Source of the DNA: an uncultured Actinomycetes bacterium
Lineage (GTDB): Bacteria; Actinomycetota; Acidimicrobiia; IMCC26256; PALSA-555
Direction: 5' to 3'
Length of the DNA stretch: 64,000 nt
NCBI GenBank assembly: GCA_963731625.1
Contig: CAVSWH010000023.1
Location: 17,430-81,429 of the forward strand
The notes under the pieces were generated by a model. It worked only from the letters and a program-made list of their open reading frames with translations, did not search any database and had not been told where the DNA came from. Within the stretch, counting starts at the first letter, position 1. Every line of letters begins with the position of its first letter. Positions 2,025 to 54,062 of the stretch are shown in pieces. The position numbers were made by a program, and so were the translations under genes.

Positions 2025-2025
2025 T

Positions 2026-3660: not shown

Positions 3661-5638
3661 TCAGCCGGTGAAGGCCACGGTGAGCTCCGGGCGAGAGCGG
3701 GGAGCGGCGCGTTGCACGGGGCTCGCGAGGCCGACGAACGCGACCATCTCGAAATCCACCGGGGTTGGACGCGGGAGGGACTTGCTTCCAATTGTTGGCC
3801 AGCCAAACGTTTCCCGACGGGTCGACGACGACGCCCGTGTTGCGCACGAGTCCGTCGAATCCGTAGCCGGTGCTCGCCGGTGAGATGGCCTGTCCGGTGG
3901 CGACACCGGCGGGGCAGCTCGCCGGCCGGGTTCCGCAGAACTCCGAAAGGCGCTGACCGCCGAAGTTCGCCACCCACACGTTGTCGGAGCCGTCTGTCGC
4001 GACACCCCAGGGGATGGTCAGTCCGCCACCCGTGAATCCGGTGGAGGGGCTTACGACGTGGCCGTTCGCGTCCAGGAGGGTCAGCGAGCCGCCGAAGGAG
4101 TTGATGTTGCTTCGATCCGGACAGGGCACGTCGACGAGCCCTGAGTTGGCCACCCACATGTCGCCTTGGCTGTCCGCCGCGATGCCGAGCGGCTTGTCCA
4201 GCCCGCCGCCCCCGACCGGGGACCCCGGTGCTGGTGACCCGTTGGGGAGAATCATCGCGACGTTGTCACTTCCAACCCCGGTGACGAAGACCCCGTTGGC
4301 GTTGTGCGCGACGCCGAACGGCTTGTGAACACCGAGGTTCCCGATGTCAACCGCGGCACCCGGTGACCCGCCGGGAAACTCGGTCACGCTGTCCGCCTGG
4401 CAGTTCGCGGTCCAGATGTTGCCCGCGGAATCCGCGGTGAGGCCCTGCGGCCAGCTGACGCCCCCTTGGGTGTATCCGCCTCCGGACGTCGCGGTGGCGT
4501 CGGGCGAGACCGCTTGCCCGGCCGATGTGAACTGCGACACGCTGTTGTGCGGTGGCTGGAGGTTGGCGGGGCAGCCCGGCGGCGGGGCAGCGAAGCCAAA
4601 GTTCGACACCCAGACATCCCCGTAGGGATCGATGTCGATGCCGAAGCCCGCACCGTTGAGACCGCCACCGTGCCACGGAGAACCCGTCACGTACTGCCCT
4701 GTCGGGGTGAACTCGAGCAGCAGGTCGCTCCCGCATACCGAGTCGAGCGGGTTGGCGTCGTACATGTAGTTGTTCGTCACCCAGATGTTGCCGTTCGCGT
4801 CGACTGCCATGTTCCCTGGCCCGCTCATGGTCTGTCCGTCGCCGACGAACCGGAGCGCCAACGTCCATGCGTCGGGCGCAGTCGCCAAGGCGGGGCTATA
4901 GGGCTTGGGACCCGTCTGCGACAGCGTGAAGAGGGGAATCACGTTCAGCCACGGGTCGTGGTTCATGCTGACGATCGCATCAAGGGTGTTGGTGGGTGCG
5001 GCTCCGCCTGGCGGAGTCGTGGCGGCGAACAGTTGGGCGCATTGCGCTTGCGCGGCGATGCACGCGGCGACGATGTTGCCGAGGGAGTTGAAGGTGGCCG
5101 CCGACGAGGCGACGTTGGGCGGACTCGCCACGACCGACCCGATCGCGCCCGTCGCAGGGTCGACGAGGTTGCGCAGCATTCCGGCCGCGTTCTCGAGGCC
5201 GGGCGAAGGGCCGCTGAGCCGACCGCTCTGAAAGAACTGCGCCATCGCATATCCGGAGGCCGCCGTCGTCAGCTCGTTCACGGTGATAGCTGGCGGGGCG
5301 GAGCCCGTGCCGAGCACGTCGCCCAGCACAACGGAGCCGGGCGTTGCCGGCCCGGTTGTGTTGACCGCCAGGACGTAGAGCACCGCGCTCGTGCTCACGT
5401 TCGAGGAGTAGGAGATGTCGAACGATCCGTCGGCCGCGGTGGTCCCCGTCCCGAGCGCGACGGGAGCGCCCGTTCCACTCGTCGTGTAGAGCGTCACGGT
5501 GTAGGCGCCCAACGGGGTCGGACCGGTCTGGACATGTCCGTGCAGGTCAGCGGTTTGCGCCGAGACCGGGCCCGCAGCGATTGGAACGGCCGCGGCGATC
5601 ATCACAGCGATCAAGAGCGCGACCCGCGGCGCACTCAT
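3661..5638 (-). CDS. Secreted NHL-repeat beta-propeller protein ending in VAFTG (one +1 frameshift at ~3752-3754)
   Basis: Repeated P.G.A.D..GN.WV.N motifs. Removing one base at NPGGF gives EMVAFVGLASPV...ELTVAFTG-stop at 3661. Confidence 0.8.
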
Positions 5639-5879
5639 CCGGCGGTGACGCATGGCCCCTCTCACGCGACGACGTGCCAACTCGCGGCGGACCCTAGCGC
5701 GGAGGGGTGTACCGCAGCTGTGCCTGATCGACGGCACATGAGCGGCCGGTCAGGGCTGACGGAACGGACGAGGCGCACCATCGCACGTCGCCGTCACCTT
5801 GGTCCCCGGGACGGCAGCTCGAACAGGTTCGACCCGGCTCGGTTGCGTCAGGCCCGAGTCGGGTTGGAGGCTGGGTCGA

Positions 5880-6806
5880 GTGATCGCCGATCGTGTGTCT
5901 GACGTCATCGTGGTTGGAGGTGGCTTGGCGGGGGTCGGCTGCGCGCTGGAGTGCTTCGACATCCAGCTCGACACCCTGCTCGTCGAAGCGGCCCCGGTCC
6001 TCGGTGGTCAGCTGCCCGAGGTGCTGCACTCGGTGCGCAACCTGGCGGCGGCGCGCTTCGGGAGCGGCTCGGACCTCCAGCGCTCGTTGCAGGAAGCGGC
6101 CGGCATCCTCGTGGATCGCGTGCGACTCGGAGCGCCGGTCACGTCCGTCGACCTCGAGAGCCGATGGATAGAGATCGGCGGCGATCACCTACCGTTCCGA
6201 TCACTCGTCGTGGCGACGGGTACCCGGGAGCAGTACCTAGCCGCGGCCCCGGACGGCGCGTTCGGGGGCGACATCACCTACCAGCTCGAGACCGACCCAA
6301 AGCACTTCACCGGCTCGGTGGCGGCCGTGATCGGCGGGGGTGACAGTGCCGTCCTCGACGCGCTCGCCCTCGCCGCCGACGGCGCGACGGTGACGCTCAT
6401 CCACCGCTCGCCCGCGCTGCACGCCCGAGACGACGTCGTGGCGCAGCTCCACGCCGAGTCGCGGATCGACGACCTGCCCGGCTGGGAGCTGGACGCCGCC
6501 CGGGGACCCGACCGGCTCGAAGCGCTGGATCTCGTCCAGCGCGAGACCGGCGAACGGCGGACGCTGGCCGCAAACCGCCTCGTGGTGAAGATCGGGCGGA
6601 CCCCGAACACCGACTTCCTCGCCGGACAGCTCGAGCTGGACCACGCAGGGGCCGTCGTGGTCGACCGCGAGCTGCACGCCTCGCACGCCGGCGTCTTCGC
6701 GGCCGGCGACATCGTCGCCGACGCGTACCCGCGCGTCGCGGCGGCGCTCGGCCAGGGCTCGCTCGCCGCCCGGTCGGTGCTGCGCTACCTGCAGGGTCGC
6801 TCGTGA
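5880..6806 (+). CDS. Thioredoxin-reductase-like FAD/NAD(P) oxidoreductase lacking CxxC
   Basis: GGGLAG, VVATG, VIGGGDSA and GVFAAGDI motifs; the redox CxxC position reads ITYQLE. Confidence 0.85.
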   Translation: MIADRVSDVIVVGGGLAGVGCALECFDIQLDTLLVEAAPVLGGQLPEVLHSVRNLAAARFGSGSDLQRSLQEAAGILVDRVRLGAPVTSVDLESRWIEIGGDHLPFRSLVVATGTREQYLAAAPDGAFGGDITYQLETDPKHFTGSVAAVIGGGDSAVLDALALAADGATVTLIHRSPALHARDDVVAQLHAESRIDDLPGWELDAARGPDRLEALDLVQRETGERRTLAANRLVVKIGRTPNTDFLAGQLELDHAGAVVVDRELHASHAGVFAAGDIVADAYPRVAAALGQGSLAARSVLRYLQGRS

Positions 6807-7384
6807 GTGCCGGGACCGAGGGCGGCGCCTCCCAGCGGACGACCGCTCCCGCCCCTCGCGATGAGCTGCCGCCGGTCAGCGCGGCGGTCGCCGAGTTCCG
6901 CGCGTCCATGGTCGAAGCCGATCCGCGTCGACCGAACGGGCTGCTAGGAGTCCTGCACGATCTCCATCAGACGAACCTTGAGCAGTGGAGCTGGGAGGAC
7001 CGCGTGCGCGGCTCCGGCGGTGACGATTCGGCGGTCGCTGCCGCGAAGCGGGCGATCGACCGGCTCAACGCCCGCCGGCACGAGCTGGTCGAGGCGATCG
7101 ACGCGGCGATCAACGCGGCCGTCACCCAACGACCCGCTGCGACACCGTCCACCGAGAGCCCGGGCATGGCGTTCGATCGCCTCTCGGTCCTGGTGATCCG
7201 CATCCACCACACCGAGGCCGCCGCCGCCCGGGGCCCCGACGCCGCTGGGCTGCGCGCGCGCCTGCCAGTTCTCGAGACACAGGTGGCGGTGCTCGAGGAG
7301 GCACTCGACGCCCTCCTGAGCGAGATCCGGGCCGGGACGCGACGCTTCCTGCCCCACCGGAGCCTGAAGCTGTACAGGCCGTAG
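6803..7384 (+). CDS. DUF4254-like helical protein
   Basis: N..QW..ED..R, KR.IDRLN..R..LVE.ID, TESPG...DRLSVL and KLY motifs; GTGA overlap with the upstream gene. Confidence 0.8.
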   Translation: MSAGTEGGASQRTTAPAPRDELPPVSAAVAEFRASMVEADPRRPNGLLGVLHDLHQTNLEQWSWEDRVRGSGGDDSAVAAAKRAIDRLNARRHELVEAIDAAINAAVTQRPAATPSTESPGMAFDRLSVLVIRIHHTEAAAARGPDAAGLRARLPVLETQVAVLEEALDALLSEIRAGTRRFLPHRSLKLYRP

Positions 7385-7400
7385 CGCCCCGACCCGGGCG

Positions 7401-8525
7401 TTACGCGTGCTCGAGCGCGAGCTGGCTGAGCGTGGCCATCGGGATGGCGCAGAGCTCGTAGCCGGCGCGGTTGAAGCCGTAGAGGACGTGGTCGTCGACC
7501 GCCGCGGCGTGGGCGATCCCGAGCGGCTGCGACGCGAGCGCCGTCGTCCGCGCGAGGAAGCCTCCGTCGTGTGTGCTGTGCAGCGTCAGCGCGCCGGTCC
7601 GCTCGACTCCGCAGACGAGATCGGGTGTGATCACGACGGCGGCGCCGCCGGTGCCCCAGGCGAGGTCGTCGAAGCGACCCTCGACGACGCGGCGCCCGTC
7701 CCGTGGGTCGAGGCCGGCGAAACCCCCACCATGTAGCTGGTCCCAGTCGTAGTCGTCGACGCCGTCGGCTGGCTCGCTGCCCGCCGCCCACAGCAGCTGG
7801 CCGTCCCAGAGGAGCGTTGCCGGCTGGAAGCCAACGGTCACCTCCCAGATCGGCGTGTCGAGCGACCTGGCCCCGATCGGGAAGAGCCCGACCCGGCGGA
7901 CCGCGCCGACGGCCACGCCCGGACCGCCGGGCGTCGACACGGCCTCCAGCGCGGTGACCACGTCCCAGTCCTCGAGGCCGACGTCGACGTCGACGTCCGG
8001 TCCCGGGTCGGTCGTCAGCGGGCCGGAGACGATCACGCCGCCTGCCGCCTCGCGGCGGGGACGCGACCCGACGAGTCGATCGTCGACGGCGACGGTGCGT
8101 TCGACGTCGTCGGCGAATCGCGACGTCCACGACGGTGCAAGCGATGTGACGGTCCCCGAGCCCGCGAGGTCGGCGGCCCGAAACGCGCGGAGCTGCCCGA
8201 GATGGTTCAAGACGACCACGACGGCGGGGCCACGGATCTCGAGGATGGCGTGGACGTCGAGGTCGTACTGGGAGAGCTCGTCGTCGTCGGGGTAGCTCGT
8301 CTGGTCGAAGACCGCCTCGGGCTGGAACGAACGCGACGCGAAGACGACGTTGCGACCGAGGTTGTTCCAGGCGCACTGACGTCCCACCGCCACGACCCGC
8401 CCGATCCCTGCCGGTTGGGAGTTCTCGACCCGACTCTCAGGGGAGGAGCCGAACACGACGGCGGGCGCGCCGGGCGGGGCGCGCCCGCCCCGCGACACGA
8501 CGCCTGGCTCGCCGGCTTCGGGCAT
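7401..8525 (-). CDS. Hypothetical beta-propeller-like protein
   Basis: Beta-rich ORF coupled to the GT9 gene by a TGATG overlap at 8523-8527. Confidence 0.65.
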   Translation of the reverse strand: MPEAGEPGVVSRGGRAPPGAPAVVFGSSPESRVENSQPAGIGRVVAVGRQCAWNNLGRNVVFASRSFQPEAVFDQTSYPDDDELSQYDLDVHAILEIRGPAVVVVLNHLGQLRAFRAADLAGSGTVTSLAPSWTSRFADDVERTVAVDDRLVGSRPRREAAGGVIVSGPLTTDPGPDVDVDVGLEDWDVVTALEAVSTPGGPGVAVGAVRRVGLFPIGARSLDTPIWEVTVGFQPATLLWDGQLLWAAGSEPADGVDDYDWDQLHGGGFAGLDPRDGRRVVEGRFDDLAWGTGGAAVVITPDLVCGVERTGALTLHSTHDGGFLARTTALASQPLGIAHAAAVDDHVLYGFNRAGYELCAIPMATLSQLALEHA

Positions 8526-9433
8526 CACCGCAGCTCCTCGAGCGCGGCGACGACCCGTTCGGGCGTGATCGAGTCCAGGCACGGGGTGCCCAACGGACAC
8601 GTCCGGACCGGCGGGCGAAATCCCCCCAGGCGAACGGACGCGTTGTACGCCAGGTCTCGCTCCCGTTCGAGGCAGAGGTCCGCGCAGGCATTCCCGACGA
8701 CGACGCGGGTGTGGGACCACGGGCGGAAGTACACGGGGCGGTCACGACACAGCATCACGGTCGGCGTGCCCTGCTGCACCGCGATGTGCGTCAGGCCCGT
8801 GTCGATGCCGACCACCGCTCGACAGCTGCTCAAGAGATCGACCGTCGCCCCGGGTGTCGGCGCCACGATCTCGACGATGCCCAGGTCGCGCAGTGCCGAG
8901 TTCGCCGTGGTGCGGACGACGGCCCGGACGTCAGATCCGGACTCGCGCGCCCACTCGGCCACCGGCGCCCACCGCTCCGCCGCCCAGTGCTTGGTCGGGC
9001 CGTCGCTCTCGGTGACGAGCAGCACCATGTGGCGGAGGTCCGAGCGACGAGACGCCCGCAGGGGAACCGGGCGGGAGAAGTCGGCGTCGATGCCGAAGTC
9101 GACGCAGATTCGGCTCAGGATGTCGTTGATCAAGATCGGCCCGTAGACGGCGTCGAACTCGTGCGATCCCCACCAGTAGTCGCGTTGCAGCGGGTGGTCA
9201 CGCAGGTTGATGAACCGGCCGCCGCAGCGAGCGGGGTCGAACGAGGCCTCGTCGATCGAGCCCGCGAGCCCGTCGATGCGCTCGGCCAACGCGGCCTGCG
9301 CGGATGATCGTGCGACCAGCCAGGTCTCGTGGGCGCCGTCTCGGTTCTCGGCCACGAGCGCCTGGACGGCCGGCAACGAGACGACGAGGTCGCCGAGCCC
9401 CAGCGAGATCGGTGCCACGTAGACACGGCTCAT
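8525..9433 (-). CDS. Glycosyltransferase family 9 (ADP-heptose transferase-like)
   Basis: LGLGDLVVSLPAVQAL N-terminus, K.W..ERW, and VGIDTGLTHIA...GTPTV motifs. Confidence 0.88.
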   Translation of the reverse strand: MSRVYVAPISLGLGDLVVSLPAVQALVAENRDGAHETWLVARSSAQAALAERIDGLAGSIDEASFDPARCGGRFINLRDHPLQRDYWWGSHEFDAVYGPILINDILSRICVDFGIDADFSRPVPLRASRRSDLRHMVLLVTESDGPTKHWAAERWAPVAEWARESGSDVRAVVRTTANSALRDLGIVEIVAPTPGATVDLLSSCRAVVGIDTGLTHIAVQQGTPTVMLCRDRPVYFRPWSHTRVVVGNACADLCLERERDLAYNASVRLGGFRPPVRTCPLGTPCLDSITPERVVAALEELR

Positions 9434-9448
9434 CAGCGAGACCCTGCT

Positions 9449-10120
9449 TCACGCGGTGGCGTAGGCGGTGACGTCCTCGATCGAGAGGTCCGAGAAGGCG
9501 CGGCGTCGCTCGGCGCATTTGTTGCAGCGGCCGCAGTGCTGCTCGCCCTCGGGGTGGATGCACGAGAACGTGTGCTGCAGCGGAAGATCTCGACCCAGGT
9601 CCAGCACATCGGCCTTGGTCAGCTCGGAGAACGGCGTCACGATCTCGAACGGCCAGTCCATGCCCGTCTGCACGACCGACCCCAGCCCGGCGAAGAACGT
9701 CGGGCTGCTGTCGCTGAACGGGTTGCCTTTCAGGGTGCCGAGGGCGACCGTCGAGATGTCGTGGAGCGCGCACCACACCGCAGCCTTGGCGACGAGAAGG
9801 AGGTTCCGGCCGGGAAGGTAGACCGCCTCGTCGGGCGAGTCGGCGTCCGGGACGTCCGTGGCCGAGACGCTCCAGTGCGCTCCATAGACGTCGGCGATCG
9901 GGAAGTCGAGCGTGACCAGTCCGCGGGCGGGCAGCGTCTCCAGGAACCGGCGCAGATGGGTCTCCTCGACCGCCTCCCAGCTCAGCCCGAACCGGATGTA
10001 GATGGGTTGGACCGCCCCTTCGTGTCGGAGGAGCTCGGCGACCAGGATGGCGCTATCGAGTCCACCGCTCGCCAGCACCGCGACGGTCCCGCGGTCAGTC
10101 GGCTGGCCGCCCGTGTTCAA
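9449..10120 (-). CDS. queC: 7-cyano-7-deazaguanine synthase
   Basis: SGGLDS PP-loop, YLPGRN, and TFSC..P...HCGRCNKC..R zinc site. Confidence 0.9.
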   Translation of the reverse strand: MNTGGQPTDRGTVAVLASGGLDSAILVAELLRHEGAVQPIYIRFGLSWEAVEETHLRRFLETLPARGLVTLDFPIADVYGAHWSVSATDVPDADSPDEAVYLPGRNLLLVAKAAVWCALHDISTVALGTLKGNPFSDSSPTFFAGLGSVVQTGMDWPFEIVTPFSELTKADVLDLGRDLPLQHTFSCIHPEGEQHCGRCNKCAERRRAFSDLSIEDVTAYATA

Positions 10121-10476
10121 CGCTCACCGCGATACACGCACCCCGACGTGCACGTCTCGCGAACCACCACCTGGGAGAGATCGGGGAGCGTGTCCACCAA
10201 CTCGTCCCAGACCCACTGCGCCAGGATCTCGCTGGTGGGGTTCTCAAGCCCGTCGATCTCGTTGAGGTAGTAGTGGTCGAGGCGCGCGAGCACCGGCGCC
10301 ATCGCGCAGCTGATCTCCGCGAAGTCGCGGACCCAGCCAGCCTCCGCCTGGACCGGGGCGGTGACGTGAACGCCCAATCGAAAGGAGTGCCCGTGGAGGC
10401 GGGCGCACTTGTGGCCGGGTGGCACGTTCGGGAGCCGATGCGCCGCCTCAAAGCTGAACTCCTTGAAGATCTCCAT
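10117..10476 (-). CDS. queD: 6-carboxy-5,6,7,8-tetrahydropterin synthase
   Basis: FEAAHRLP, KCARLHGHS, LDHYYLN, LENPTSE and RETCTSGC motifs. Confidence 0.95.
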   Translation of the reverse strand: MEIFKEFSFEAAHRLPNVPPGHKCARLHGHSFRLGVHVTAPVQAEAGWVRDFAEISCAMAPVLARLDHYYLNEIDGLENPTSEILAQWVWDELVDTLPDLSQVVVRETCTSGCVYRGER

Positions 10477-10644
10477 CAGCCCAACTCCCGAGGCGGTGGT
10501 CGTCGTGGGCGGCGCGACCCGAGCGCGCCGGCAACACGGTCCTGTGCGGCAAGCATCCGCTCCCAGACCTTACGGGGAGCCCGGCCGCGGTGCACTCCAC
10601 AGCCGCGTGGCGGCACGAAGGCCTCGGAACCGTAGCGTTCCAGC

Positions 10645-11448
10645 ATGCAGATCGACGTGCTCCTGGACCCGTTCGGCACACGCTGGTCCGAGCTCCGCGA
10701 CACGGCCCGTGCTGCGGCCGAGGCGGGGTTCGCGGGCGTCTGGACCTGGGATCACCTGGACGGCCGCGTGTACGACGCGCCGGACGTGCTCGAGTGCTGG
10801 ACCGTGCTGACCGCGCTCGCCGTCGCCGTCCCGAACGTGATGATCGGACCGCTCGTCCTCAACGTCGCCAATCGCCGTCCCGGCGTGCTCGCCGTCATGG
10901 CGGCCACGCTCCAGGACGTCTCGAGTGGCCGACTCCTGCTCGGGCTCGGGGCGGGCGGTGGCCCGGACACGCCCTACCAACGTGAGCAAGAGGCGACCGG
11001 CGGCACGGTGGCGGCCGACCCCGCCCGCCGAGCGCAGATCGAGACGTGCGTCGAGCAGGTTCGGCACCTGTGGCGATCTCCCGGATTCCTGGAGCCCGAC
11101 CCCGCGCCGCCATTCGTGATCGGCGCGTTCGGTCCGAAGATGGCGGAGCTCGCGGGACGGGTCGGCGACGGGATCAACACGCGAGCTGCCGACCCTCGTC
11201 TGGAGGAGATCGTGACCATTGCCCGCGTCGCCCACGAGCGGGCCGGTCGGGATCCTGCTCACTTCTTGGTCACCGTGTTCACCGCGCTGGATGAATCGTG
11301 GCTGACGATCGACTCGGAGCGCCGGAAGCATCTGGACGCGCTCGGCGTGAACCGCCTGATCCTGTACGTGCGCCCGGCGGACGACCGGGCTCGGATCGCC
11401 GCCGCTGGACGGATGGCCACGCACGTTGGCGGGTCGGAACGCGACTGA
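10645..11448 (+). CDS. LLM-class (luciferase-like) flavin/F420-dependent oxidoreductase
   Basis: GFAGVWTWDH, R.PGVLA.MAATL..VSSGRLLLGLGAG motifs. Confidence 0.9.
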   Translation: MQIDVLLDPFGTRWSELRDTARAAAEAGFAGVWTWDHLDGRVYDAPDVLECWTVLTALAVAVPNVMIGPLVLNVANRRPGVLAVMAATLQDVSSGRLLLGLGAGGGPDTPYQREQEATGGTVAADPARRAQIETCVEQVRHLWRSPGFLEPDPAPPFVIGAFGPKMAELAGRVGDGINTRAADPRLEEIVTIARVAHERAGRDPAHFLVTVFTALDESWLTIDSERRKHLDALGVNRLILYVRPADDRARIAAAGRMATHVGGSERD

Positions 11449-11544
11449 CAAGGGTCCGGTCGGAGCGTCGAGCCCATTGCGAGGAGTTGTGCGCGTCGGA
11501 GTCTTCCAACGTCGACGCGGAGCCGGCGCCTAGGTTGGTCGTCG

Positions 11545-13021: not shown

Positions 13022-13077
13022 GATGGGCAGACGCCCCTGATCAGACGCTTGGCACGACACGCGACCTGGGTCGCTGC

Positions 13078-13103
13078 GACTCGCGCCCCGGTAACCGCGA
13101 GTC
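13078..13103. repeat. Palindrome (10-bp spacer)
   Basis: gactcgcg-ccccggtaac-cgcgagtc between convergent genes. Confidence 0.9.
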
Positions 13104-13140
13104 GCTCAGGCAAATGGGCGCGGCCAGATCGCTGTCGGAC

Positions 13141-13644: not shown

Positions 13645-13741
13645 CTCGCACCCCTCTTGAGGAAGGCGCCCGACCGTCTCAGCGCAACAAGACGGTAGAG
13701 GTGACCCCTAGTTGATCGCCACCGTCTCCAGACCTATCTGA

Positions 13742-13768
13742 GCCCCGCCGTTCCCTGGACCGCGAGTC
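13742..13768. repeat. Degenerate palindrome (right arm intact)
   Basis: gccccgcc-gttccctggac-cgcgagtc. Confidence 0.65.
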
Positions 13769-22335: not shown

Positions 22336-23301
22336 TCAACCCGTGAATTGGGGAGCGATCACGAGCGGCGGCGGTGGCGGCGGGGTGCTACAGGTCTGAA
22401 GGGCCAGTGACACCGGATCGCCGGTCGCGCCGGCGAGGATGGGACCGACGGTGGCCGTGCCCGTCGTCGTGTCGAGCGTGAAGACATGCCGCACGGTGTC
22501 TGCGGTGGTTCCGACACCCCACAGCTCGCCGGTACCGTCGAAGTCGAGGCCGGACAGCAGGTTGTTCGTGCCGAAGCCGGTGCCGATCGTGTTGGGCGCG
22601 CCATTGGTCAAGTTCAGCGCGTCGAGCAGCGCATTGGGGCCGGCGTCCTCACTCCGAACGCCCCCCGGTGGAGTAGAGCTCTTGGTCTTGGCATTCATGG
22701 TCCCGGGCTGAGGCTCGATCGTGAACCCCGCGTCGGCGCAGGAGATGGCCAGGTTGTCTAGGGAAGTGCCCGCGGGAGCCGCCCCGACGAACTCGGCGGC
22801 GGCGATGTTGCTCAAGTTGGCGCGATAGAGGCAGGTGGCGCTCGTGCCGCAACCGGCATCAGCGCCCACCATCGTCGCGAATACTGTCCCGGACGAGTCG
22901 AAGGCCAACCCCGCCTCTGTCGGATCCGCGAACGCGTTGAACGAACCGAACTGCCCGAGGTCTGCATCGACCTGGCCCGTTGTCGTATCGAGCTGGAAGA
23001 GGTGTATCGGCCCGGCCGGCTGGCCTGCGTTGGTGGCGAGCCCGAAGAGACGACCGTCGGGGGCGTACGCGATGTCCGACATGCACACATCGCCGCCGAC
23101 GTGCGGGAGCGGTGTCACGGTCCCGGTGACGAGGTCGACCAGACCGAGCTGGCAATCCGCGCCGCCGATGCGCTGCGTCACGAGCATGTCGACGACCCCG
23201 GTCGGGAACGCGCCCGCTGGGGCGCCACCGCCGACTCCCAGCAATCCCAAAACGGCCACGCAGCACAGTAGGACGGCGACGCGCCGCACGCCTCTCCGCA
23301 T
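22336..23301 (-). CDS. Secreted beta-propeller protein ending in PQFTG
   Basis: Signal peptide ending PAGA; IAYAPDGRLFG, LAFDSSG and LDFDGTGELWG blades; poly-Pro linker then LVIAPQFTG-stop. Confidence 0.8.
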   Translation of the reverse strand: MRRGVRRVAVLLCCVAVLGLLGVGGGAPAGAFPTGVVDMLVTQRIGGADCQLGLVDLVTGTVTPLPHVGGDVCMSDIAYAPDGRLFGLATNAGQPAGPIHLFQLDTTTGQVDADLGQFGSFNAFADPTEAGLAFDSSGTVFATMVGADAGCGTSATCLYRANLSNIAAAEFVGAAPAGTSLDNLAISCADAGFTIEPQPGTMNAKTKSSTPPGGVRSEDAGPNALLDALNLTNGAPNTIGTGFGTNNLLSGLDFDGTGELWGVGTTADTVRHVFTLDTTTGTATVGPILAGATGDPVSLALQTCSTPPPPPPLVIAPQFTG

Positions 23302-46597: not shown

Positions 46598-47391
46598 GTC
46601 AACGACTGGATGACGTGGGCCACGTCGTGGTCCTCCGTCGGGGCCACGACGCGGCGCAGCACCTGGCGCAGGGCGGGGTCCGGTTCGATCAGGTGCCGGG
46701 CGTGTCGCGCCGCCCGCCGGTCGGCGGCGACGACGGCGGACGTGTGCTCCTCGGGTACGAGCGGCGCCAGCTTCTCAGCCAGCCGCCAGGCGTCCAACCG
46801 CACCTGGTGGATCCAGAGCGCGATGAGCTGCTGCCCGAAGGGGTCCGCGGGAACGAGCGGCGCGAGCGGTGACACCCGGTGCATCTCCCGGCTCGTCCGG
46901 GGGAGGAGCCGGACCAGGATGGCGTTGATGGCCCCGAAGTCGGACCGCAGCTCGGCCAAACGTGGCCCCGGTGCGACGATCGAAGCCACGACACCCAGAT
47001 CCAGCCGAATGTGGGCATTGATCCCAAGGAAGAGGTGCTGGATGACGCTCAGGTCGCGCCGGTCGCTCGCCTCGAAGGCGAGCCGCCACGACTCGGTCGG
47101 GGCCTCGCCGGCCCGGTGCTGGTCGAGGGCATCGAAGAAGCGCTGCGCGAACCGGACGTCGAACTCGGCGACCCGGGCGCTGTCGGCGAACGACCCCGCG
47201 GCGATGTCGCCGCGGATGGTCACCGTCACCCGCCGATAGACGGCGGCGAAGTAGCCGATACGGCTATTGGTGTCCGACGCCCACTCGAGGACGTCGTTCA
47301 GCCTCCAGATGACCCGATCGACCGACGCCACCGGATCGGCGGCGATGCCCGCCGGGTCCCCCGAGGCGCGGTCCTGCGCACCTGCCGCCAC
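46594..47391 (-). CDS. DUF5995 family protein
   Basis: GYFAAVY.RVT, F..RF, and GINAHI..DL motifs. Confidence 0.8.
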   Translation of the reverse strand: MAAGAQDRASGDPAGIAADPVASVDRVIWRLNDVLEWASDTNSRIGYFAAVYRRVTVTIRGDIAAGSFADSARVAEFDVRFAQRFFDALDQHRAGEAPTESWRLAFEASDRRDLSVIQHLFLGINAHIRLDLGVVASIVAPGPRLAELRSDFGAINAILVRLLPRTSREMHRVSPLAPLVPADPFGQQLIALWIHQVRLDAWRLAEKLAPLVPEEHTSAVVAADRRAARHARHLIEPDPALRQVLRRVVAPTEDHDVAHVIQSLT

Positions 47392-47581
47392 GGGTCCAGC
47401 ATGACCTGTTGACCGTGGTCATGCCACGGCCGCGCCGCCACGCCCGGCGACGCCGAGCCGTGCCCTCCCGATGTGGCGGGCCAGGTCCGGCAGCGACGCC
47501 GCCTGCGCCGCCGGTGCTGCCGGCCTGACCACCGACGCCGGGGTTCACGATGGGGTGGAAGGCGCCGCTTGCCGACCGCAG

Positions 47582-47608
47582 GACTCGCGATTCGGTAGAC
47601 CGCGAGTC
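47582..47608. repeat. 27-bp palindrome
   Basis: gactcgcg-attcggtagac-cgcgagtc. Confidence 0.95.
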
Positions 47609-47753
47609 GCGGGCGACGACTGGCCGTTCGAGGCCGGTACGCGAGATCGCGGCCCCGCACCTGTCCTGGCCGGCGGCGGGCCGCACCCGGAGACGCGCCG
47701 GTGATCGAGCCTTAGAGTGCGTCACCGAGCAGTCTGATCGGAAGGGGCAAGCC

Positions 47754-48056
47754 TTGCATGTCGCCGAATTCACGCTGCACGCGAAGCCGGGGCATTACCG
47801 AGCGGTCGCCGAGCTGTATTCCGTCTTCGCGGCGGAGTTCCTCTCCGAGCATGAAGCGCTCGAGACGGTGCTCATCGTCGGCGACGAAGGATCCGGAGTG
47901 GTTCGAGGCATCGGCGTGTTCACCGACCGCGAGTCCGCGGACAGCGTCAACAGCGATCCGGAGTTCGCGGCCTTCAACGACGCGGTCGGACCGCTGCTGG
48001 CCAACCCGCCCGAGCGGATCGAGCTCGAGCTGCTCCACCTGTTTTCGGGCGAGTGA
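47754..48056 (+). CDS. Small ABM-like dimeric alpha/beta-barrel protein
   Basis: TTG start after a GAAGGGG RBS; AKPG and PLLA.PP pattern. Confidence 0.65.
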   Translation: MHVAEFTLHAKPGHYRAVAELYSVFAAEFLSEHEALETVLIVGDEGSGVVRGIGVFTDRESADSVNSDPEFAAFNDAVGPLLANPPERIELELLHLFSGE

Positions 48057-48122
48057 GATCGGCGTGGCCTGCGGAACGCTGAGGGCCGTTCGGCTCGAGC
48101 ACCTCTCAGTGCCGCGAGCCCG

Positions 48123-49424
48123 TTACGGGCAGCCGCCGCCGGTCACGGTCCCGGGACGCGTGGGATCGGTCGGGTTCGGCGTCCACGTGCCGCTGCGCAC
48201 CCATTGGGGTCGGCGCCTGTCGGTGCTGCAGATGGACCAGTAGGCGTAGGGAGCCGAGGTCCGGTCTCCTGACGGGTCGAGCCGGATCGTGCCCGTGACT
48301 CCCTTGTAGCCGTTGGCCGTCCGGGCGAAGGCCGCTCGGAGGGTCGGTCCATCGACGCTGGCGCCGGTGCTGCGAAGCGTGCGAACGGCCACGTTGAACG
48401 CGTCGTATGCCGCGAGCCCGAACGCGTCGGGGGTGGCGTGTGCCCGGGTGCGGATCTGCTGGATCAGGGAGGTGTCACCGGACGCAGTCGTGGCGGGGAG
48501 CGCGACGAGCGGGCTGGGATATCCATGGACCGTCACGGCGAAGCTGGCGGCCTCCGCGCTGTCGACGAGCTGGGTCGCTTGCGCTGAGCCGTCGCCGCCG
48601 TACCAGCGCACGCTCGACAGACCGGTCATCGACTTGGCTGCGGCGAGGACGTCGGCGGTCTCCTCGAAGCCGGCGAGGTAGACGCCGACATGGCCTGCGC
48701 CGTCTTGTTTGCTGACCGCCGCGACCTGCGCGGCGACGGCCTGCAGAGCCGGGCCGAAGGAGGTCGTGTCCGGCTCGTAGCGGAAGCCCGCGCTCACTTG
48801 GATGCCGTCGGACGTGGCCGCGGATCGGACCGAGTCGGCGAGACCCTGGTTCCCGCGGTCGTCACGCCAGATCGGCACGAGGTCATGGATGCCCTGGCGG
48901 AACAAGAGGTCTGTGGTCGCCCGCCCTTCGACGTGATCGTTGGGGACGAAGCGAAAGATGTTGTCGTTCGGCATGGCCAGCGATGACGCCGTGCTGCCCT
49001 GCGACACGACCAGCACGCCTTGCGCGTTTGCCAGAGGTTGGATGGCCGCGACTTCGGAGCTCGACTGCGGGCCGATGATGATCCTGACGCCCTGCGCCGC
49101 AAGCTGCTGGAACCCTGCGACCGCTCTCGTCGGATCTTGACCGGTGTCGACGACGTCGAGCTCCACCCGCGTGGCTTGGTGCTGCTTCGTCAGCGTCTGG
49201 TTCCAGCGAGCAGTCGCCACCTCCAGCGCGGCGCGGCTCGTGTTGCCAAGACTGGAGCCTGCGCCGGTGATCGAGAGCAACGCACCGATCCGCAGCACGG
49301 TGGGCGGGTTCGTGGACTGTGCCGGCGCCGGCGCGGCGGCCACGATCCCGACGGTCAGCGCGCCGACGACGAGGAGCCCGAGCGCCGGGAGGCGGGCGGC
49401 ACGACGCTGCCGGTTGTGACTCAT
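48123..49424 (-). CDS. Branched-chain amino acid-type ABC substrate-binding protein
   Basis: Signal peptide; IGALLSITG, IIGPQSS, FRF.PND, AYDA and GVTG.I.LD..GDR motifs. Confidence 0.88.
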   Translation of the reverse strand: MSHNRQRRAARLPALGLLVVGALTVGIVAAAPAPAQSTNPPTVLRIGALLSITGAGSSLGNTSRAALEVATARWNQTLTKQHQATRVELDVVDTGQDPTRAVAGFQQLAAQGVRIIIGPQSSSEVAAIQPLANAQGVLVVSQGSTASSLAMPNDNIFRFVPNDHVEGRATTDLLFRQGIHDLVPIWRDDRGNQGLADSVRSAATSDGIQVSAGFRYEPDTTSFGPALQAVAAQVAAVSKQDGAGHVGVYLAGFEETADVLAAAKSMTGLSSVRWYGGDGSAQATQLVDSAEAASFAVTVHGYPSPLVALPATTASGDTSLIQQIRTRAHATPDAFGLAAYDAFNVAVRTLRSTGASVDGPTLRAAFARTANGYKGVTGTIRLDPSGDRTSAPYAYWSICSTDRRRPQWVRSGTWTPNPTDPTRPGTVTGGGCP

Positions 49425-49513
49425 GAACGACCCCCTCGCGGGCACGCTAGACGCGAACCGCACGTTCGTGTTTGAAGCACGTTGACGCCCTGGGTAGCGA
49501 TACCGTCTCGAAC

Positions 49514-49915
49514 GTGGCCAAGGTGACTCCCCGAAGCGTCGTCGCGGCTTTGGGCATCTGCCGGGTGGGCATCGGGCTCGCGTTCTTGCTGGCGCCCCGT
49601 CGGTTGAACGCAGATGCGGGCGAGGCCAGCGGATCGACGCTGATGGTCCGCAGCTTCGCGGTGCGCGAGGCGGCCCTCGGGATCGGCGGCTTGGTGGTCG
49701 CGATGCAGGCCGACGATCGGCCCACGGATGTTCAGCTCTGGGCCGGGCTGGGTGCGCTGGTCGACACCGGTGACCTGGGTACGGCCGTCGCGAGCAAGCA
49801 GGCGATCGCGTCGCTCATGGCCACGGTCGGCCTCGCGGCGGAGTCGTGGGCGTGGTGGGCTGAGCGCCAGTGGTCGCGCGCCGCGGATGGCGCGATACCA
49901 GCCACCAGTTCGTAA
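49514..49915 (+). CDS. Small membrane protein (DUF4267-like)
   Basis: R..IG...LAP, R.FAVRE.ALG and VD.GD pattern. Confidence 0.65.
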   Translation: MAKVTPRSVVAALGICRVGIGLAFLLAPRRLNADAGEASGSTLMVRSFAVREAALGIGGLVVAMQADDRPTDVQLWAGLGALVDTGDLGTAVASKQAIASLMATVGLAAESWAWWAERQWSRAADGAIPATSS

Positions 49916-49925
49916 GGGTGCGGCG

Positions 49926-50891
49926 CTACCGCGCCAGGCGGAAGAGGCTGTCGTTTCCCAGCCGCTCGACGAACGACGGCTCGTAGGCCGCTGTCGGCTC
50001 CCGGCGGACTGCATCGTCGAGCACCTCGGCGTCCCGGCCGACGAGGATTCGCCACTCGTCGTTGCGAACGCCGGTGAGAATGATGGTGGCTGCCTCGGCC
50101 GCCGACAGTGGCGCAGCGTCGCGGAACAGCTCGGCCTGCGCGACCAAGCCTTGGCGGAGGTCCTCGTCCGACGCGCCGGCGGTGGGGATCCCGTGGCGCT
50201 CGATCCGCGCTCGGGCCTCCGCCACTTGCTCGTCGGTGAGCTCCTTCAGATCGCGCCCGAGGTACCGGCCCGAGTTGAACACGATCGACGTGCCCACGTG
50301 GCCGGGCATCACGACCGAGGCGCGCAGATGCGGTGCGTTCAGCCGGAAGTCGGTGATGAGCGCCTCGGTCAGGCCCTTCACCGCGAACTTCGCGGCGCTG
50401 TACGCCGTGTGCGGGAGGTTGGGGCCGAGCGAGGCCCAGAAGCCGTTCACGCTGCTCGTGTTCACGACGTGCCCTTCGGTGCTCGCGAGGAGCATCGGGA
50501 GGAACACCCGCAGGCACGTGTACACGCCGCCCCAGCAGACGGCGAACGTCTGGTCCCACTCGTCGCGGCCATCGAGGATGAAGCTGCCGCCCCCACCGAT
50601 GCCCGCGTTGTTGAACAGCAGGTTGATGTGGTCGGTCTCGTGCGCCGACGCGACCGCGTCACGGAAGCGCGAGATCTGGGCCTCGTCGGCGACGTCGGCC
50701 ACGAACGTCGTGACCACCGTGCCTGCCGGTGCCCCCGCGGTCGCGAGCGTCTTCGTCTGCTCGAGGTCGTCCTCGGCGACGTCGCACGTCGCCACGTGAC
50801 AGCCCTCGCCGGCCAGCTGCCGAACAAGCTCGCGGCCCATACCCGACCCGCCGCCCGTGACGACAGCGATCCTGCCTGCGAAGTCGCGCAC
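49926..50891 (-). CDS. SDR oxidoreductase
   Basis: TGGGSGMG, NNAGI and YSAAK motifs. Confidence 0.92.
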   Translation of the reverse strand: MRDFAGRIAVVTGGGSGMGRELVRQLAGEGCHVATCDVAEDDLEQTKTLATAGAPAGTVVTTFVADVADEAQISRFRDAVASAHETDHINLLFNNAGIGGGGSFILDGRDEWDQTFAVCWGGVYTCLRVFLPMLLASTEGHVVNTSSVNGFWASLGPNLPHTAYSAAKFAVKGLTEALITDFRLNAPHLRASVVMPGHVGTSIVFNSGRYLGRDLKELTDEQVAEARARIERHGIPTAGASDEDLRQGLVAQAELFRDAAPLSAAEAATIILTGVRNDEWRILVGRDAEVLDDAVRREPTAAYEPSFVERLGNDSLFRLAR

Positions 50892-51127
50892 GACGACCAC
50901 CTCCGAGGCCAGAGGTTGGCGCGCACACCAAGGTCCCGCAAGGCTGACCTGCGCCGCCAGAGCGTTTCGCCGATCGGCCGGGTCGGGATGGCAACGTTGT
51001 TCAGAGACCACCCGTCGGGAACCGTTCGCGTTTCGGCGACTGTGTCGGCGAATCTCGCCGAGCTCGACGCCGCCGCGAACACCCCCGTCGCGTTCCGGGC
51101 GCTTGGCATCTGAGGCTGGGCAGGCCC

Positions 51128-51154
51128 GACTCGCGGTCTCCGACACCGCGAGTC
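51128..51154. repeat. 27-bp palindrome
   Basis: gactcgcg-gtctccgacac-cgcgagtc. Confidence 0.95.
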
Positions 51155-51272
51155 GCTCACTCACCGCCGGAACGGGCACGACGAATTTGGCGATGCGGCG
51201 TCGGGCCCCGCGACGAGGGCGCCGCGTGCTGTCTCGCCCGGCGTCAGGCCTCTCAGACCGGGCTGGAACCCA

Positions 51273-52271
51273 TCAGCCCGTGAACGCCGCCGTGGCCTCG
51301 ACGCAGCCTGAGCTGGCCGGATCGGCGGTGATGGTGACGCTGCCGTTGCCGGTGTTGACGCCGGTCTGGAACACGGTGCCCGGCGGACCGAAGCCCGATC
51401 CGCCGCCTCCGGGATCCCCGAAGGCCGCGATCTCGACGAAGAGGGACCCACCGCCGCCGCCACCGAAGTAGCCGCCACCGCCGCCGCTTCCGCCGAAGAG
51501 ACCTGGACCGCCGGCCCCGCCCTGGCCGAAGGCACCCGCGTCGCCATTCGTTCCGTCGACGCCGCCCGCACCTCCCGCGATCTGCGTTCCGCCGCCTCCG
51601 GCGCTCAAGTCGGTCGGGTCTTGCGGGTTGCCCTTCACGCCGGTCGGACCGCCTCCCGCCCCGCCATCGAGAGGAACAGCCTCCTCCGTGAATATGGCGC
51701 CCACGCCGGCGCCGCCTCCGCCGCCGCCGACCAGCACCCGATGGGCCAGGTCGCTTCCGCCCTGTCGGATGTCAGACGAACCGCCCCCGCCCGCGCCCGG
51801 GGCCTCCGCCATCGCGCTGCCCGCCCCGCCGTCGGGTGTGCCCGCCGCGCCCGTGTCGCCGTAGGCATCGCCTGGGCTGCCGACGCTCACGACGAGTGTC
51901 TCGCCGGGCGTGACCGGAAGCGTCGCGGCGGCGCTCCCGCCCGCGCCGCCGACGCCGGTGCCACCGGATTGCGCGGCGTGGACGCCCGCGCCCGTCGGAG
52001 CGCTCGGGGTCTGCGCGGCCCGACCCTGGCCCTGGATCTCGGCGCGGAACTTGGCGCCGGCGGTTGTAAAGAAGTCAGTGGAGGCGCCGCCGCTCGCTCC
52101 CACGGCGGCCGCGGAGACCTGGCAGATGCCAGCTGGCACCTGGTAGCTGAAGGTGCCCGGCGTGGAGAAGGTGGTGGTGACCGCGGTGGCGCTGGCTGCC
52201 GGCGCCGCAGTCGCGGCGGCCACTGCGCTCACACCGATGCCGATCGCGATGCCCAACGCCGATTTCCGCAC
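51273..52271 (-). CDS. Secreted glycine-rich protein ending in AAFTG
   Basis: Signal peptide ending PAASA; VPAGIC...GA.GG, GGGGGYFGGGGG and GNGSVTI motifs. Confidence 0.85.
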   Translation of the reverse strand: MRKSALGIAIGIGVSAVAAATAAPAASATAVTTTFSTPGTFSYQVPAGICQVSAAAVGASGGASTDFFTTAGAKFRAEIQGQGRAAQTPSAPTGAGVHAAQSGGTGVGGAGGSAAATLPVTPGETLVVSVGSPGDAYGDTGAAGTPDGGAGSAMAEAPGAGGGGSSDIRQGGSDLAHRVLVGGGGGGAGVGAIFTEEAVPLDGGAGGGPTGVKGNPQDPTDLSAGGGGTQIAGGAGGVDGTNGDAGAFGQGGAGGPGLFGGSGGGGGYFGGGGGGSLFVEIAAFGDPGGGGSGFGPPGTVFQTGVNTGNGSVTITADPASSGCVEATAAFTG

Positions 52272-52455
52272 CGTACGCCTCCGCCGCTCTGGTCGGTGAC
52301 CAGATGGCGACACGATAATGGCCGCGCCGACGGCAGGTCGGCTTCACTGGAGCCCGCTCGGGGGTACAAACGTTCCGATTGGGATCCCGGCGAGGGGACT
52401 CCCAGTCGCCGAGACCTCGGGTCCGGCCGGCGTACCCGGCGGCGCGCGGTTCCCG

Positions 52456-52743
52456 CTAGCTGGTCGGCGCGCCTCGACGGTCGAGGGCTGCCTTCTTCAT
52501 GGTGTCGGCGTTGTCGGAGGCGGCCTGTTTGACCTCGTTGGCGCTGGCCCGTGCGGTCTCCGCCACCTTCTCGGCGGCATCGTTCGCCATGGCGCGGACG
52601 TCGTGGGCCGCGATCCACGTGCGATCGACGACCCAGTTGCCGGTCTCCTTGAGCTCGTCGGACCGTCCGGCGAACTTGTCGTAGAGCGCCTTGATGCCAA
52701 ATGCCGCGAATGCCAGGACAAGAACACGGAGGATGAAGCGCAC
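52456..52743 (-). CDS. Small protein with N-terminal TM helix and LEA/YtxH-like helical tail
   Basis: AAGGAGG RBS; hydrophobic N-terminus followed by an Ala/Lys/Glu-rich helix. Confidence 0.6.
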   Translation of the reverse strand: MRFILRVLVLAFAAFGIKALYDKFAGRSDELKETGNWVVDRTWIAAHDVRAMANDAAEKVAETARASANEVKQAASDNADTMKKAALDRRGAPTS

Positions 52744-52843
52744 CGGAGTCCCTCCTTTGTCGTTGCGGGACGTGTACCCCACAGGGCGGCTCGCCTAATC
52801 GCATCGCTGGGGGTGGCGCGACGGGCTGGCCGCCGCCCGGCGC

Positions 52844-52870
52844 GACTCGCGATCCGAGAGATCGCGAGTC
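52844..52870. repeat. 27-bp palindrome
   Basis: gactcgcg-atccgagagat-cgcgagtc. Confidence 0.95.
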
Positions 52871-52931
52871 GCGCGCACACACCCGCGTCGGATGGTTTCG
52901 GGAGCCGCCGTCGCGGGGACCGTGACGGTGT

Positions 52932-54062
52932 TCAGCCGGTGAAAGCCGCCGTGACGTTCGTGGCCGCAGACGCTGGGCACGCGTCGGTCGTCGGGTCGTA
53001 GCTGACGGTCACGGAGCCGTTGCCGATGACCGGGCCCGGCTGGAAGGAGACGCCGGTGCCGCTCGCCGCCGCGAAGGAGGACCCGCCCCCGCCACCGCCG
53101 CCCGAAATCCCGGCGGCACCACCACCGCCCGCGCCGTAGCCTGCGCCACCGCCACCGCCGTTCGACTCACCGCCCCCACCGCCGCCGCCGAACCCAGTGC
53201 CTCCGCCGCCACCGGCGGCGCTCCCTGAGCTGCCGCCCGTGCCGCCGTTGCCGCCCGTCGCGTTCCCCGCGCCGCCGTGCGCTGCTGCGCCGGTACCGCC
53301 GAGCCCGGTCCCCATGCCGCCGTTCCCGCCGACGCCGCCGTCACCGGCGCTGATCCCAGCGCCGCCACCGCCGCCACCGATTCCGTTCGCGCCGTTCCCG
53401 CCCGCGCCGGACGACGGGCCCGTGCCGCCTCCGCTGTTCACACCGCCGCCGCCACCGCCGTCCGTGGCACCGGTCGCCCCCGCACCTCCGTTGCCCGTCG
53501 CCGAGCCGCCGCCGGCTTGGATCCCGCTGGTCCCGGCGCCACCTGCGCTTCCATTGCCTCCAGGCGCGGTGGCTGCCGACCCGCCTTGGCCGGGTGCGGC
53601 ACCCTCGCCGCCCCCGCCGCCACCACCGGCGACCGCGAGCGGCGCGAGTCCTGCCGTCGCCACGACCGACGCGCCACCGCCCCCGCCGCCCGTCTGGATG
53701 CCGTTGGTACCGCCGCCGCCCCCGCCACCGGCGCCGCCGTTCGGTGGCAGCCCGCCGGTTGAACCCCCGCCACCGACGACGACGAGGAGGGTGGTCGAGG
53801 GAGAGACGGCGAAGTGACCGGACACCATCGCGCCGGCGCCGCCGTTGGCCGACCCGCCGCCGGCGCCCCCGCCGCCGGCCGCACCGTCCGCGGTGACGGT
53901 GACGAAGCAGATTCCCGCGGGGACGGCATAGGTCGTGGCGCCGGGCGTCGTGAACATGGTCGGGACCGCCGCGGCGCCCGCCGGTCCCGATGCGACCGCC
54001 AGCCCGAGCGAACTTCCGGCAACGAGCACGCCCGTGAGCACACCGATCCGTCCGCGCTGCAT
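52932..54062 (-). CDS. Secreted glycine-rich protein ending in AAFTG (paralog of 51273-52271)
   Basis: Signal peptide ending PAGA; YAVPAGIC, long Gly-rich core, GNGSVTV..DP...C...AAFTG-stop. Confidence 0.85.
   Translation of the reverse strand: MQRGRIGVLTGVLVAGSSLGLAVASGPAGAAAVPTMFTTPGATTYAVPAGICFVTVTADGAAGGGGAGGGSANGGAGAMVSGHFAVSPSTTLLVVVGGGGSTGGLPPNGGAGGGGGGGTNGIQTGGGGGGASVVATAGLAPLAVAGGGGGGGEGAAPGQGGSAATAPGGNGSAGGAGTSGIQAGGGSATGNGGAGATGATDGGGGGGVNSGGGTGPSSGAGGNGANGIGGGGGGAGISAGDGGVGGNGGMGTGLGGTGAAAHGGAGNATGGNGGTGGSSGSAAGGGGGTGFGGGGGGGESNGGGGGAGYGAGGGGAAGISGGGGGGGSSFAAASGTGVSFQPGPVIGNGSVTVSYDPTTDACPASAATNVTAAFTG

Follow-up and report, generated by a model that had tools for sequence, protein, structure and literature searches.

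In the textbook view of Gram-positive sorting, sortase substrates must be held in place by a membrane helix together with a charged tail. What, then, is to be made of exported proteins that stop at Phe-Thr-Gly, with neither helix nor charged tail behind it? The question is raised by a 64,000-nucleotide stretch (hereafter the window) of contig C23 (CAVSWH010000023.1, positions 17,430 to 81,429) of an uncultured member of the Acidimicrobiia, in which four genes for proteins of exported type end in Phe-Thr-Gly (FTG) followed directly by a stop codon. The source genome (G000) comprises 4.0 Mb in 24 contigs and is 94% complete; the window is high-GC (64-73% G+C). The FTG tag is real and conserved, no description of it was found in the libraries and papers searched, and an evolutionary link between it and the LAxTG sorting signal is, judging from sequence comparison, very likely. 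The reading that I favour, at a probability of roughly 0.4, is that [AP]-x-F-T-G-COOH is a minimal sortase-type signal of Sec-exported proteins, an offshoot of LAxTG that does without the helix and the basic tail and that would be cleaved between Thr and Gly.

A terminal Phe-Thr-Gly on exported proteins

In the whole genome, 59 of the 34,633 stop-to-stop open reading frames (ORFs) of at least 60 amino acids end in FTG. In a gene set from which overlaps had been removed and which had been filtered on G+C content at third codon positions, 34 of 3127 genes do so, where 0.44-0.56 are expected by chance (Poisson P ~1e-51); the enrichment on which the original prediction hung is therefore present, 34 cases standing against about 0.5. 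FTG is the commonest C-terminal tripeptide of this gene set, AAA coming second with 19. Its position is exact: FTG lies at distance 0 from the C-terminus in 59 ORFs, and at each of the distances 1 to 12 in just 0 to 5. Since it is encoded by 14 different 9-mers, and since TGA, TAA and TAG are all used as the following stop codon, selection acts on the peptide. Some of the 59 ORFs are fragments, and at least one resembles a non-coding frame.

The 59 tails share more than the invariant F-T-G. Position -4 is Ala in 32 of them and otherwise Arg, Thr, Gln or Glu; position -5 is Ala (40), Pro (14), Val (4) or Ser (1); position -6 is Thr in 31, and position -7 is drawn from Leu, Ile, Val and Pro. The resulting consensus, [LIV]-T-[AP]-x-F-T-G-COOH, is preceded by a Pro/Thr/Ala linker, the 17 residues before FTG consisting of 22% Ala, 17% Thr and 15% Pro. 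In 46/59 proteins a Cys stands 7-44 residues from the end; it probably marks where the folded domain stops. At the other end of the protein, a Sec-like N-terminus was scored in 40/59, though the rule used is crude and accepts 34% of the ORFs overall; inspected by eye, the Sec-type N-termini look like ordinary signal peptides. The sequence P-A-G-A occurs at the predicted signal-peptidase site of 15 of these 40 proteins (..GSGPAGA|A..), for example in those encoded at window positions 23301 and 54062. As a motif linked to the tag it was rejected: it is enriched, yet it is found on other exported proteins of the genome, and is probably a habit of the lineage.

BLAST separates the tagged proteins into 25 clusters or more. 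The families recognized by Pfam or NCBIfam include a pectate-lyase-like adhesive domain with choice-of-anchor Q, NHL and YncE propellers, GDSL lipase, the Ig domains Big_9 and Big_3_5, CarboxypepD_reg, DUF5979, an ice-binding-like family and the ALK/LTK glycine-rich domain, a repertoire that is usual for wall-anchored proteins. The tail itself is covered by no Pfam model and is not matched by TIGR01167, and when 15 tagged proteins were scanned against NCBIfam no model matched the tail in any of the 15. NF041518 (choice-of-anchor Q; cut-off 25) scores 69.3 bits on one protein (L004, residues 326-387 of 402) and 58.3 bits on another (L005) and stops about 15 residues short of the FTG end. Nothing on proteins ending in FTG, or on a LAXTG signal that lacks its anchor, was found in literature searches. 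An existing hidden Markov model that already describes the signal, which the original prediction had named as a possible objection, was thus not encountered in Pfam or, for the 15 proteins, in NCBIfam.

In the window (Table 1), the four FTG-stop ends first noticed there belong to three intact ORFs and, once a frameshift is allowed for, to an NHL-repeat propeller gene (Pfam NHL match, E 2e-13). The ..ELTVAFTG end of the latter lies in a 114-aa ORF whose frame differs from that of the 884-aa NHL ORF at 3083-5737. Two NHL orthologs in a related genome (L054 and L055 in G146, ~52% identity) are intact, reading ..NPGGYEIVAFVGLAGPVQ..PRFTG and ..PSFTG. Because these are uninterrupted, the window gene must be taken to carry a single frameshift and to have ended originally in FTG, which justifies the repair made in the original prediction; the frameshift is either a real lesion or an assembly error. 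Of the two glycine-rich proteins, the one of 346 aa carries the Pfam ALK/LTK glycine-rich domain (PF12810, E 9e-10), and the similarity between the two is confined to the first 55 residues (E 8e-6). An AlphaFold model of the 321-aa propeller is all-beta (mean predicted local distance difference test score, pLDDT, 77), and Foldseek matches it best to TolB, Kelch and Pizza propellers. The tail, residues 302-321, is modelled as coil with a pLDDT of 60-65. The beta-strand-like run that had been proposed to precede the motif is accordingly absent from this model, in which the tail is a flexible appendage outside the fold.

The window also holds a complete sorting signal. The protein encoded at its left edge ends, as had been described, in LAFTG, a hydrophobic helix and a basic tail: the translation reads LAFTG, then QPLTLLVLLGVGLIVAGGAVLTL, then RRRLRAA, with a hydrophobic stretch of 23 residues, and TIGR01167 matches it at C23:18472-18555. 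No Pfam or NCBIfam domain was found in this protein. It consists of about eight repeats of the form ..VCGNG.GV.GTGTT..C.. with paired cysteines, and may resemble, if only loosely, the chaplin-type wall-anchored hydrophobic proteins.

Conservation and distribution of the tag

The tail is conserved together with the proteins that bear it. In the alignment of the propeller family, P-[RQKL]-F-T-G closes 12 of 13 rows, one of them only 30% identical; the row that departs from this looks frameshifted. A scan of the genome contigs with a profile of this alignment found no relative. Among the best 120 homologs of the choice-of-anchor-Q protein, FTG is the ending of 106, LTG of 7 and FAG of 1. In other lineages position -4 is mostly Arg, Lys or Thr. 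Several of the homologs carry NCBI names as proteins of Acidimicrobiia metagenome-assembled genomes, and it is on these names that the assignment to this class rests. Over all homologs fetched, the FTG motif is terminal in 134 and non-terminal in 3, and homologs that run on into a helix, which the original prediction had named as a refutation, were not found among them. Nor do the reading frames beyond the stop codons of the four window genes encode a helix, as judged by eye. Stop read-through or recoding was discarded as an explanation on this ground and because TGA, TAA and TAG are all in use.

The distribution among genomes was followed with a DNA pattern, [AP]-x-F-T-G with TGA or TAA as the next codon, for which a reversed control gives 0-3 hits per genome. 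The pattern requires GC-rich codons, so that low-GC lineages are under-sampled. It was applied to 201 genomes of the class and to 233 genomes of the phylum outside the class. In the class sample, G000 has 24 hits. Its family contributes 11 further genomes, of which 9 have 5-38 hits and two, both of genus g10, have 1 each. A second family, f23, placed in another order, has 4-24 hits in 9/9 genomes, and 9 of 10 loci fetched from it hold a long ORF ending in ..P-x-FTG, several with a clear signal peptide. None of the remaining 180 genomes has more than 3 hits. In the phylum sample, 0/233 genomes have more than 4; the unpublished genomes G268, G445, G240 and G361 are among them with 1 hit each, and no claim made here rests on these four. 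Heavy use of FTG is confined to two families of one class, probably the Acidimicrobiia. Lighter use is widespread, with single cases in Thermoleophilia and in other Actinomycetota.

The ice-binding-like family connects the FTG tail to sortase signals, since in this family the two can be compared on related proteins. Of 150 cluster representatives, 17 end in FTG, 7 end in LTG, and at least 17 carry LPXTG or LAXTG followed by a helix and a basic tail. Among 80 named loci, FTG is the end of 22 (Solirubrobacterales/-aceae 8, uncultured Actinomycetes 8, Gaiellales/-aceae 3, Thermoleophilaceae 2, Actinomycetota 1), often after a Lys/Arg/Ala-rich linker. Tripartite signals (LPNTG, LPDTG, LAETG and others) were scored by a crude rule in 15 of the 80, in Patescibacteria, Clostridia and Chloroflexi, and further homologs end in tails resembling those of the type IX secretion system or in other helix tails. 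In this family, the FTG tail occupies the same position as the sortase signals of related proteins. Moreover, all four Sphaerisporangium loci (L087, L101, L113, L125) end in bare sortase-type pentapeptides, IAVTG, IAVTG, IVTG and LPTAG. Taken with the tripartite signals of this family, with the LAFTG signals of G000 itself and with its class-E-type sortase, described below, these bare pentapeptides make the link to LAxTG very likely.

Two further observations concern the same family. In the Sphaerisporangium loci and in one from Nonomuraea (L132), a His/Lys/Arg-rich stretch comes first, then IAVTG, IVTG, LPTAG or LRLTG, then the stop; both genera are cultured Streptosporangiales with an anchor-less x-T-G tail. 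Other Acidimicrobiia homologs (L070, L077, L078, L081, L084, L093, L096, L130) end in ..S(R/Q)NDGLIGLGALALVG..RRR, that is, in a motif, a helix and basic residues, which may be another sorting signal.

A proposed sortase-type signal and its rivals

If the FTG tail is a minimal sortase-type signal, the protein would be exported via Sec and its signal peptide removed; the flexible Pro/Thr/Ala linker would then offer the tail to the membrane-bound housekeeping class-E-type sortase, which would cut the Thr-Gly bond, free the glycine, and transfer the protein through its Thr carbonyl to an amine of the cell wall. As the leaving group would be a lone free Gly, I infer that this step would be practically irreversible. 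The sortase gene is present: G000 has three PF04203 (Sortase) matches, one of them of class E type (TLTTCNP, GHRTTYG) at C23:233.6 kb, outside the window, and it has three full tripartite signals, two LAFTG and one LPSTG. Beyond G000, the class sample has 20 FTG-rich genomes, and Pfam Sortase is matched in 19 of them; the sortases of f23 read TLMAC and are otherwise of the same type. That the helix is not chemically needed is indicated by added LPETG-amide peptides, which, according to PMC4723074, SrtA of S. aureus builds into the wall of living cells although they have no helix. When the sortase domain was modelled in complex with an FTG tail of 40 residues, the prediction scored 0.02, which speaks neither for nor against this reading.

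Two other sortase-like genes of G000 deserve description in their own right. In one (L002, C24:5546-8893; ORF 1252-2610, minus strand), Ser replaces the catalytic Cys (..LTLITSDGG..); this gene lies directly 3' of a gene for a solute-binding-like exported protein with a terminal helix and a basic tail. In the other (L003, C24:14015-17302), a sortase domain follows a family-2 glycosyltransferase-like (GT2) membrane protein in one long frame, after which the frame changes; this is either a fusion or a frameshifted pair.

Several points weigh against a sortase-type signal. PMC4723074 also states that leaving the carboxylate of the LPXTG glycine free 'may inhibit SrtA activity', and according to PMC5148588 class E sortases are thought to read Ala at -4. 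A hydrophobic segment after the motif is found in 0/59 tails, the stop following directly after Gly in 59/59, and a basic C-terminal cluster likewise in 0/59, while all three full signals of G000 have one. The pentapeptide L-[PA]-x-T-G is kept in part: T-G in 59/59, Ala at -4 in 32/59, Leu at -5 in 0/59. The strict stop after Gly is strongly kept and is not something that sortase requires. Moreover, the enzyme does not follow the tag. Pfam Sortase is matched in 182/201 class genomes, so that its presence is not discriminating; one FTG-rich genome, G215 (94% complete), is without a match; FTG-rich genomes mostly hold one housekeeping class-E-type sortase; and an alignment of 19 sortase catalytic domains, from FTG-rich and from FTG-free members of the same family, revealed no distinguishing residue. 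An extra sortase paralog was considered and set aside, FTG-rich genomes having mostly one match and L002 and L003 of G000 not being general. Finally, the choice-of-anchor-Q cargo family was not found in 5/5 FTG-free relatives, which indicates that the tagged repertoire is gained or lost as a block, and the pattern of dozens or none in sister lineages suggests a lineage-specific component.

Such a component is the core of the strongest rival, in which a dedicated reader of the free C-terminus would recognize hydrophobic-Thr-Gly-COO- and dock or ligate the protein. The reader could be a transpeptidase other than a sortase, a receptor, or a protein of the wall or of a surface layer. I consider this possible, though somewhat improbable. 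It accounts for the exact termination, both in the genome (59 ORFs at distance 0 and 0-5 at each of 1-12) and in the homologs (134 against 3). It accounts for the invariant Phe at -3, a position that is free in sortase motifs, and for the all-or-none distribution, with 4-38 hits per genome in two families and at most 3 in the other 180 genomes, including a genus of the same family. It also fits a sortase that is alike in FTG-rich and FTG-free relatives. A chemical possibility under this rival is an LD-transpeptidase-like enzyme for which L-Thr-Gly-COOH would be the acyl donor, replacing the L-centre/D-Ala-COOH end of the stem peptide; I know of no precedent for L-Thr-Gly-COOH in that role. In the stricter form that FTG-COOH is a new, sortase-independent surface-sorting signal of Actinomycetota, read through its free carboxylate by a transpeptidase or a receptor, the idea is slightly less probable still, even if it would explain the invariant stop after Gly, the invariant Phe and the dozens-or-none distribution together.

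Against a dedicated reader stands the fact that no candidate for it was found. The families that recur within 6 kb of FTG genes are, cargo aside, only large regulator-like and metabolic ones, and were rejected as candidates. The S41 C-terminal processing peptidase was likewise rejected, occurring in 0/19 FTG-rich genomes. Counts of YkuD (LD-transpeptidase) are uninformative, this domain being present in 45/45 genomes with 1-9 matches and similar numbers in all groups. Besides, the Sphaerisporangium ends LPTAG and IAVTG suit a sortase motif better than they suit a reader of F-T-G. The profiling of the motif against sortase and transpeptidase families called for by the original prediction was thus carried out, and neither the sortase nor the YkuD profile discriminates. 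Of the two roles first suggested for the tail, that of a truncated sortase-like tag with a dedicated transpeptidase survives in its first half, the tag being anchor-less, conserved and similar to LAxTG, while for its second half no dedicated enzyme turned up; a strand docking proteins onto a pilus or surface layer has nothing in these data to support it.

The remaining explanations would deprive the tail of function or give it another one. According to the first, the peptide is a functionless by-product of a portable 3' DNA module that carries ..AAFTG-stop and spreads by recombination or duplication. Such a module exists: the sequence after the TAG stop is common to 14 FTG loci; a 170-nt BLAST query taken from it has 14 matches, of which 9 lie directly after ..FTG-stop, in three protein families and mostly at C4:900-955 kb; and TAG is the stop of 30/59 FTG ORFs compared with 27% genome-wide. 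It is not found, however, at the other 45/59 loci, and 14 codon strings and three stop codons are in use. As even homologs of 30% identity retain the tail, and other classes do so where the flanking sequence is unrelated, this explanation is very improbable. The module may help the tag to spread; it does not explain why the tag is conserved. It comprises the last codons, ..GCCGCGTTCACCGGGTAG, and about 100-170 nt downstream, in FTG genes of three families (C4:900-955 kb, C1:969 kb, C24:30 kb of G000). A small ORF inside it, placed tail-to-tail, ends in ..AIDTDDETGG, and one copy lies behind a decayed end, SAKITR-stop.

Just as improbable is that the tagged proteins are decayed sortase substrates, former LAxTG proteins that lost their anchors by nonsense mutation and are now merely secreted. 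Their tails do resemble LAFTG, and full tripartite signals are few (three in G000). Independent loss, on the other hand, would not put the stop right after Gly in 59 ORFs and 134 homologs, nor would it hold F-T-G invariant across classes, and FTG-free relatives are equally poor in full signals, the 5 genomes scanned having 2-4 TIGR01167 matches over cut-off apiece. Counts made with TIGR01167 are a rough guide only, since this model matches all 14 control genomes too.

Hardly credible, finally, is that FTG marks a peptidyl-glycine substrate for a secreted PHM-like copper monooxygenase (C23:156622-158187) that would hydroxylate or amidate the C-terminus: PHM acts on peptides with a Gly-COOH end, and the gene lies on the same contig as the window and encodes a signal peptide, but its phylogenetic profile does not follow the tag, the gene occurring in 21/201 class genomes scattered over several families, in many FTG-free genomes (e.g. 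G043, G036, G094, G116), in 0/9 FTG-rich f23 genomes and in 0/7 FTG-rich g8/g9 genomes. The protein has a cupredoxin tail; Pfam gave a weak cupredoxin match only.

For the minimal sortase-type signal, cleavage, the enzyme and the linkage to the wall are what I infer from the above. What is observed has consequences whichever reading is right. In one genome, as many as 59 exported proteins bear a tail of three to six residues whose carboxylate is free, and this tail is conserved over at least three classes of Actinomycetota, mostly in uncultured lineages of soil and water. If the tail is cleaved and ligated, wall anchoring would work without membrane retention, and nature would have supplied, in FTG, a minimal tag for ligation; should something other than sortase read the tail, it would belong to a new sorting system. 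In either case, surface proteins of Acidimicrobiia and Thermoleophilia can be annotated by a simple rule, a signal peptide combined with ..[FLV]TG-stop; in these classes the FTG-tailed proteins are at present mostly annotated 'hypothetical protein'.

Two features of the DNA of the window are recorded apart from the tag. A palindrome resembling repetitive extragenic palindromes (REP-like), (G)ACTCGCG-N9-11-CGCGAGT(C), has 52 copies in the genome, 26 of them in the first 70 kb of C23 (16 in the window; Table 1), 17 in C15 and 9 in C1 and C4 together (2.6 Mb). As a hairpin downstream of the gene, this locally abundant palindrome was tried as an element of the tag and rejected: it stands behind all four FTG genes of the window, yet genome-wide it is within 250 nt of 7/59. 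The palindromes are dense in the stretch from about 12000 to 40000, where G+C is 64-66% compared with 70-73% elsewhere in the window; this stretch may be an acquired segment.

Table 1. Tagged genes and other features of the window, in window coordinates
Feature	Position	Strand	C-terminus and remarks
NHL-repeat propeller gene	3661..5653	-	one frameshift near 3754-3760; last 30 residues, read in the second frame, end ..PELTVAFTG; FTG codons 3664-3672
Beta-propeller-like secreted protein, 321 aa	22336..23301	-	ends ..CSTPPPPPPLVIAPQFTG (..LVIAPQFTG); FTG codons 22339-22347, stop TGA; from translation
Glycine-rich secreted protein, 346 aa	51273..52313	-	ends ..SSGCVEATAAFTG (..VEATAAFTG); FTG codons 51276-51284, stop TGA; from translation
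Glycine-rich secreted protein, 376 aa	52932..54062	-	ends ..TDACPASAATNVTAAFTG (..NVTAAFTG); FTG codons 52935-52943, stop TGA; from translation
Cys-containing repeat protein, 5' end open	2..1141	+	LAFTG 1034-1048; hydrophobic helix and RRRLRAA 1049-1138
REP-like palindrome copies	2093, 3545, 13079, 15865, 21273, 22260, 24490, 24532		
REP-like palindrome copies	26692, 26768, 29267, 32687, 39827, 47583, 51129, 52845		

Comparison with known sorting and attachment systems

Braun lipoprotein, which LD-transpeptidases attach covalently to the wall through its C-terminal Lys, resembles the FTG proteins in depending on the very last residue and in having no need of a C-terminal helix. There the protein is the amine acceptor and peptidoglycan the acyl donor, whereas the FTG tail has no such amine and would have to be the donor. 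The PEP-CTERM/exosortase, GlyGly-CTERM/rhombosortase and PGF-CTERM/archaeosortase tags all come with a transmembrane helix and a dedicated membrane enzyme. With these the FTG tail shares its genomic behaviour: dozens of unrelated proteins are tagged in one genome, the distribution is patchy and all-or-none, and 'choice-of-anchor' domains bear the tag, as NF041518 does on two FTG proteins. It differs from them, and from MYXO-CTERM, in having no motif-helix-basic layout and no identified enzyme.

The LPXTG signal of Firmicutes (TIGR01167, PF00746) occupies the same C-terminal place in ice-binding-like homologs and is borne by the same kind of cargo; the FTG tail differs from it in lacking Pro at -4, in not being tripartite and in being unmatched by TIGR01167. 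The class E signal, as described in PMC5148588, consists of LAXTG, a hydrophobic segment and a basic tail, and is exemplified by the chaplins ChpA-C of Streptomyces coelicolor, substrates of SrtE1/E2. By comparison, the FTG tail has no hydrophobic segment, no basic tail and no Leu at -5, its stop comes directly after Gly, and the residue at 'x' is invariably Phe. The likenesses are these: both signals occur in the same phylum, both have Thr-Gly at the actual or would-be scissile bond, Ala is found at -4 in 32/59 FTG tails, the upstream linker is rich in Pro and Thr, and the genome that bears the FTG tails has full signals reading LAFTG and a class-E-type sortase gene.

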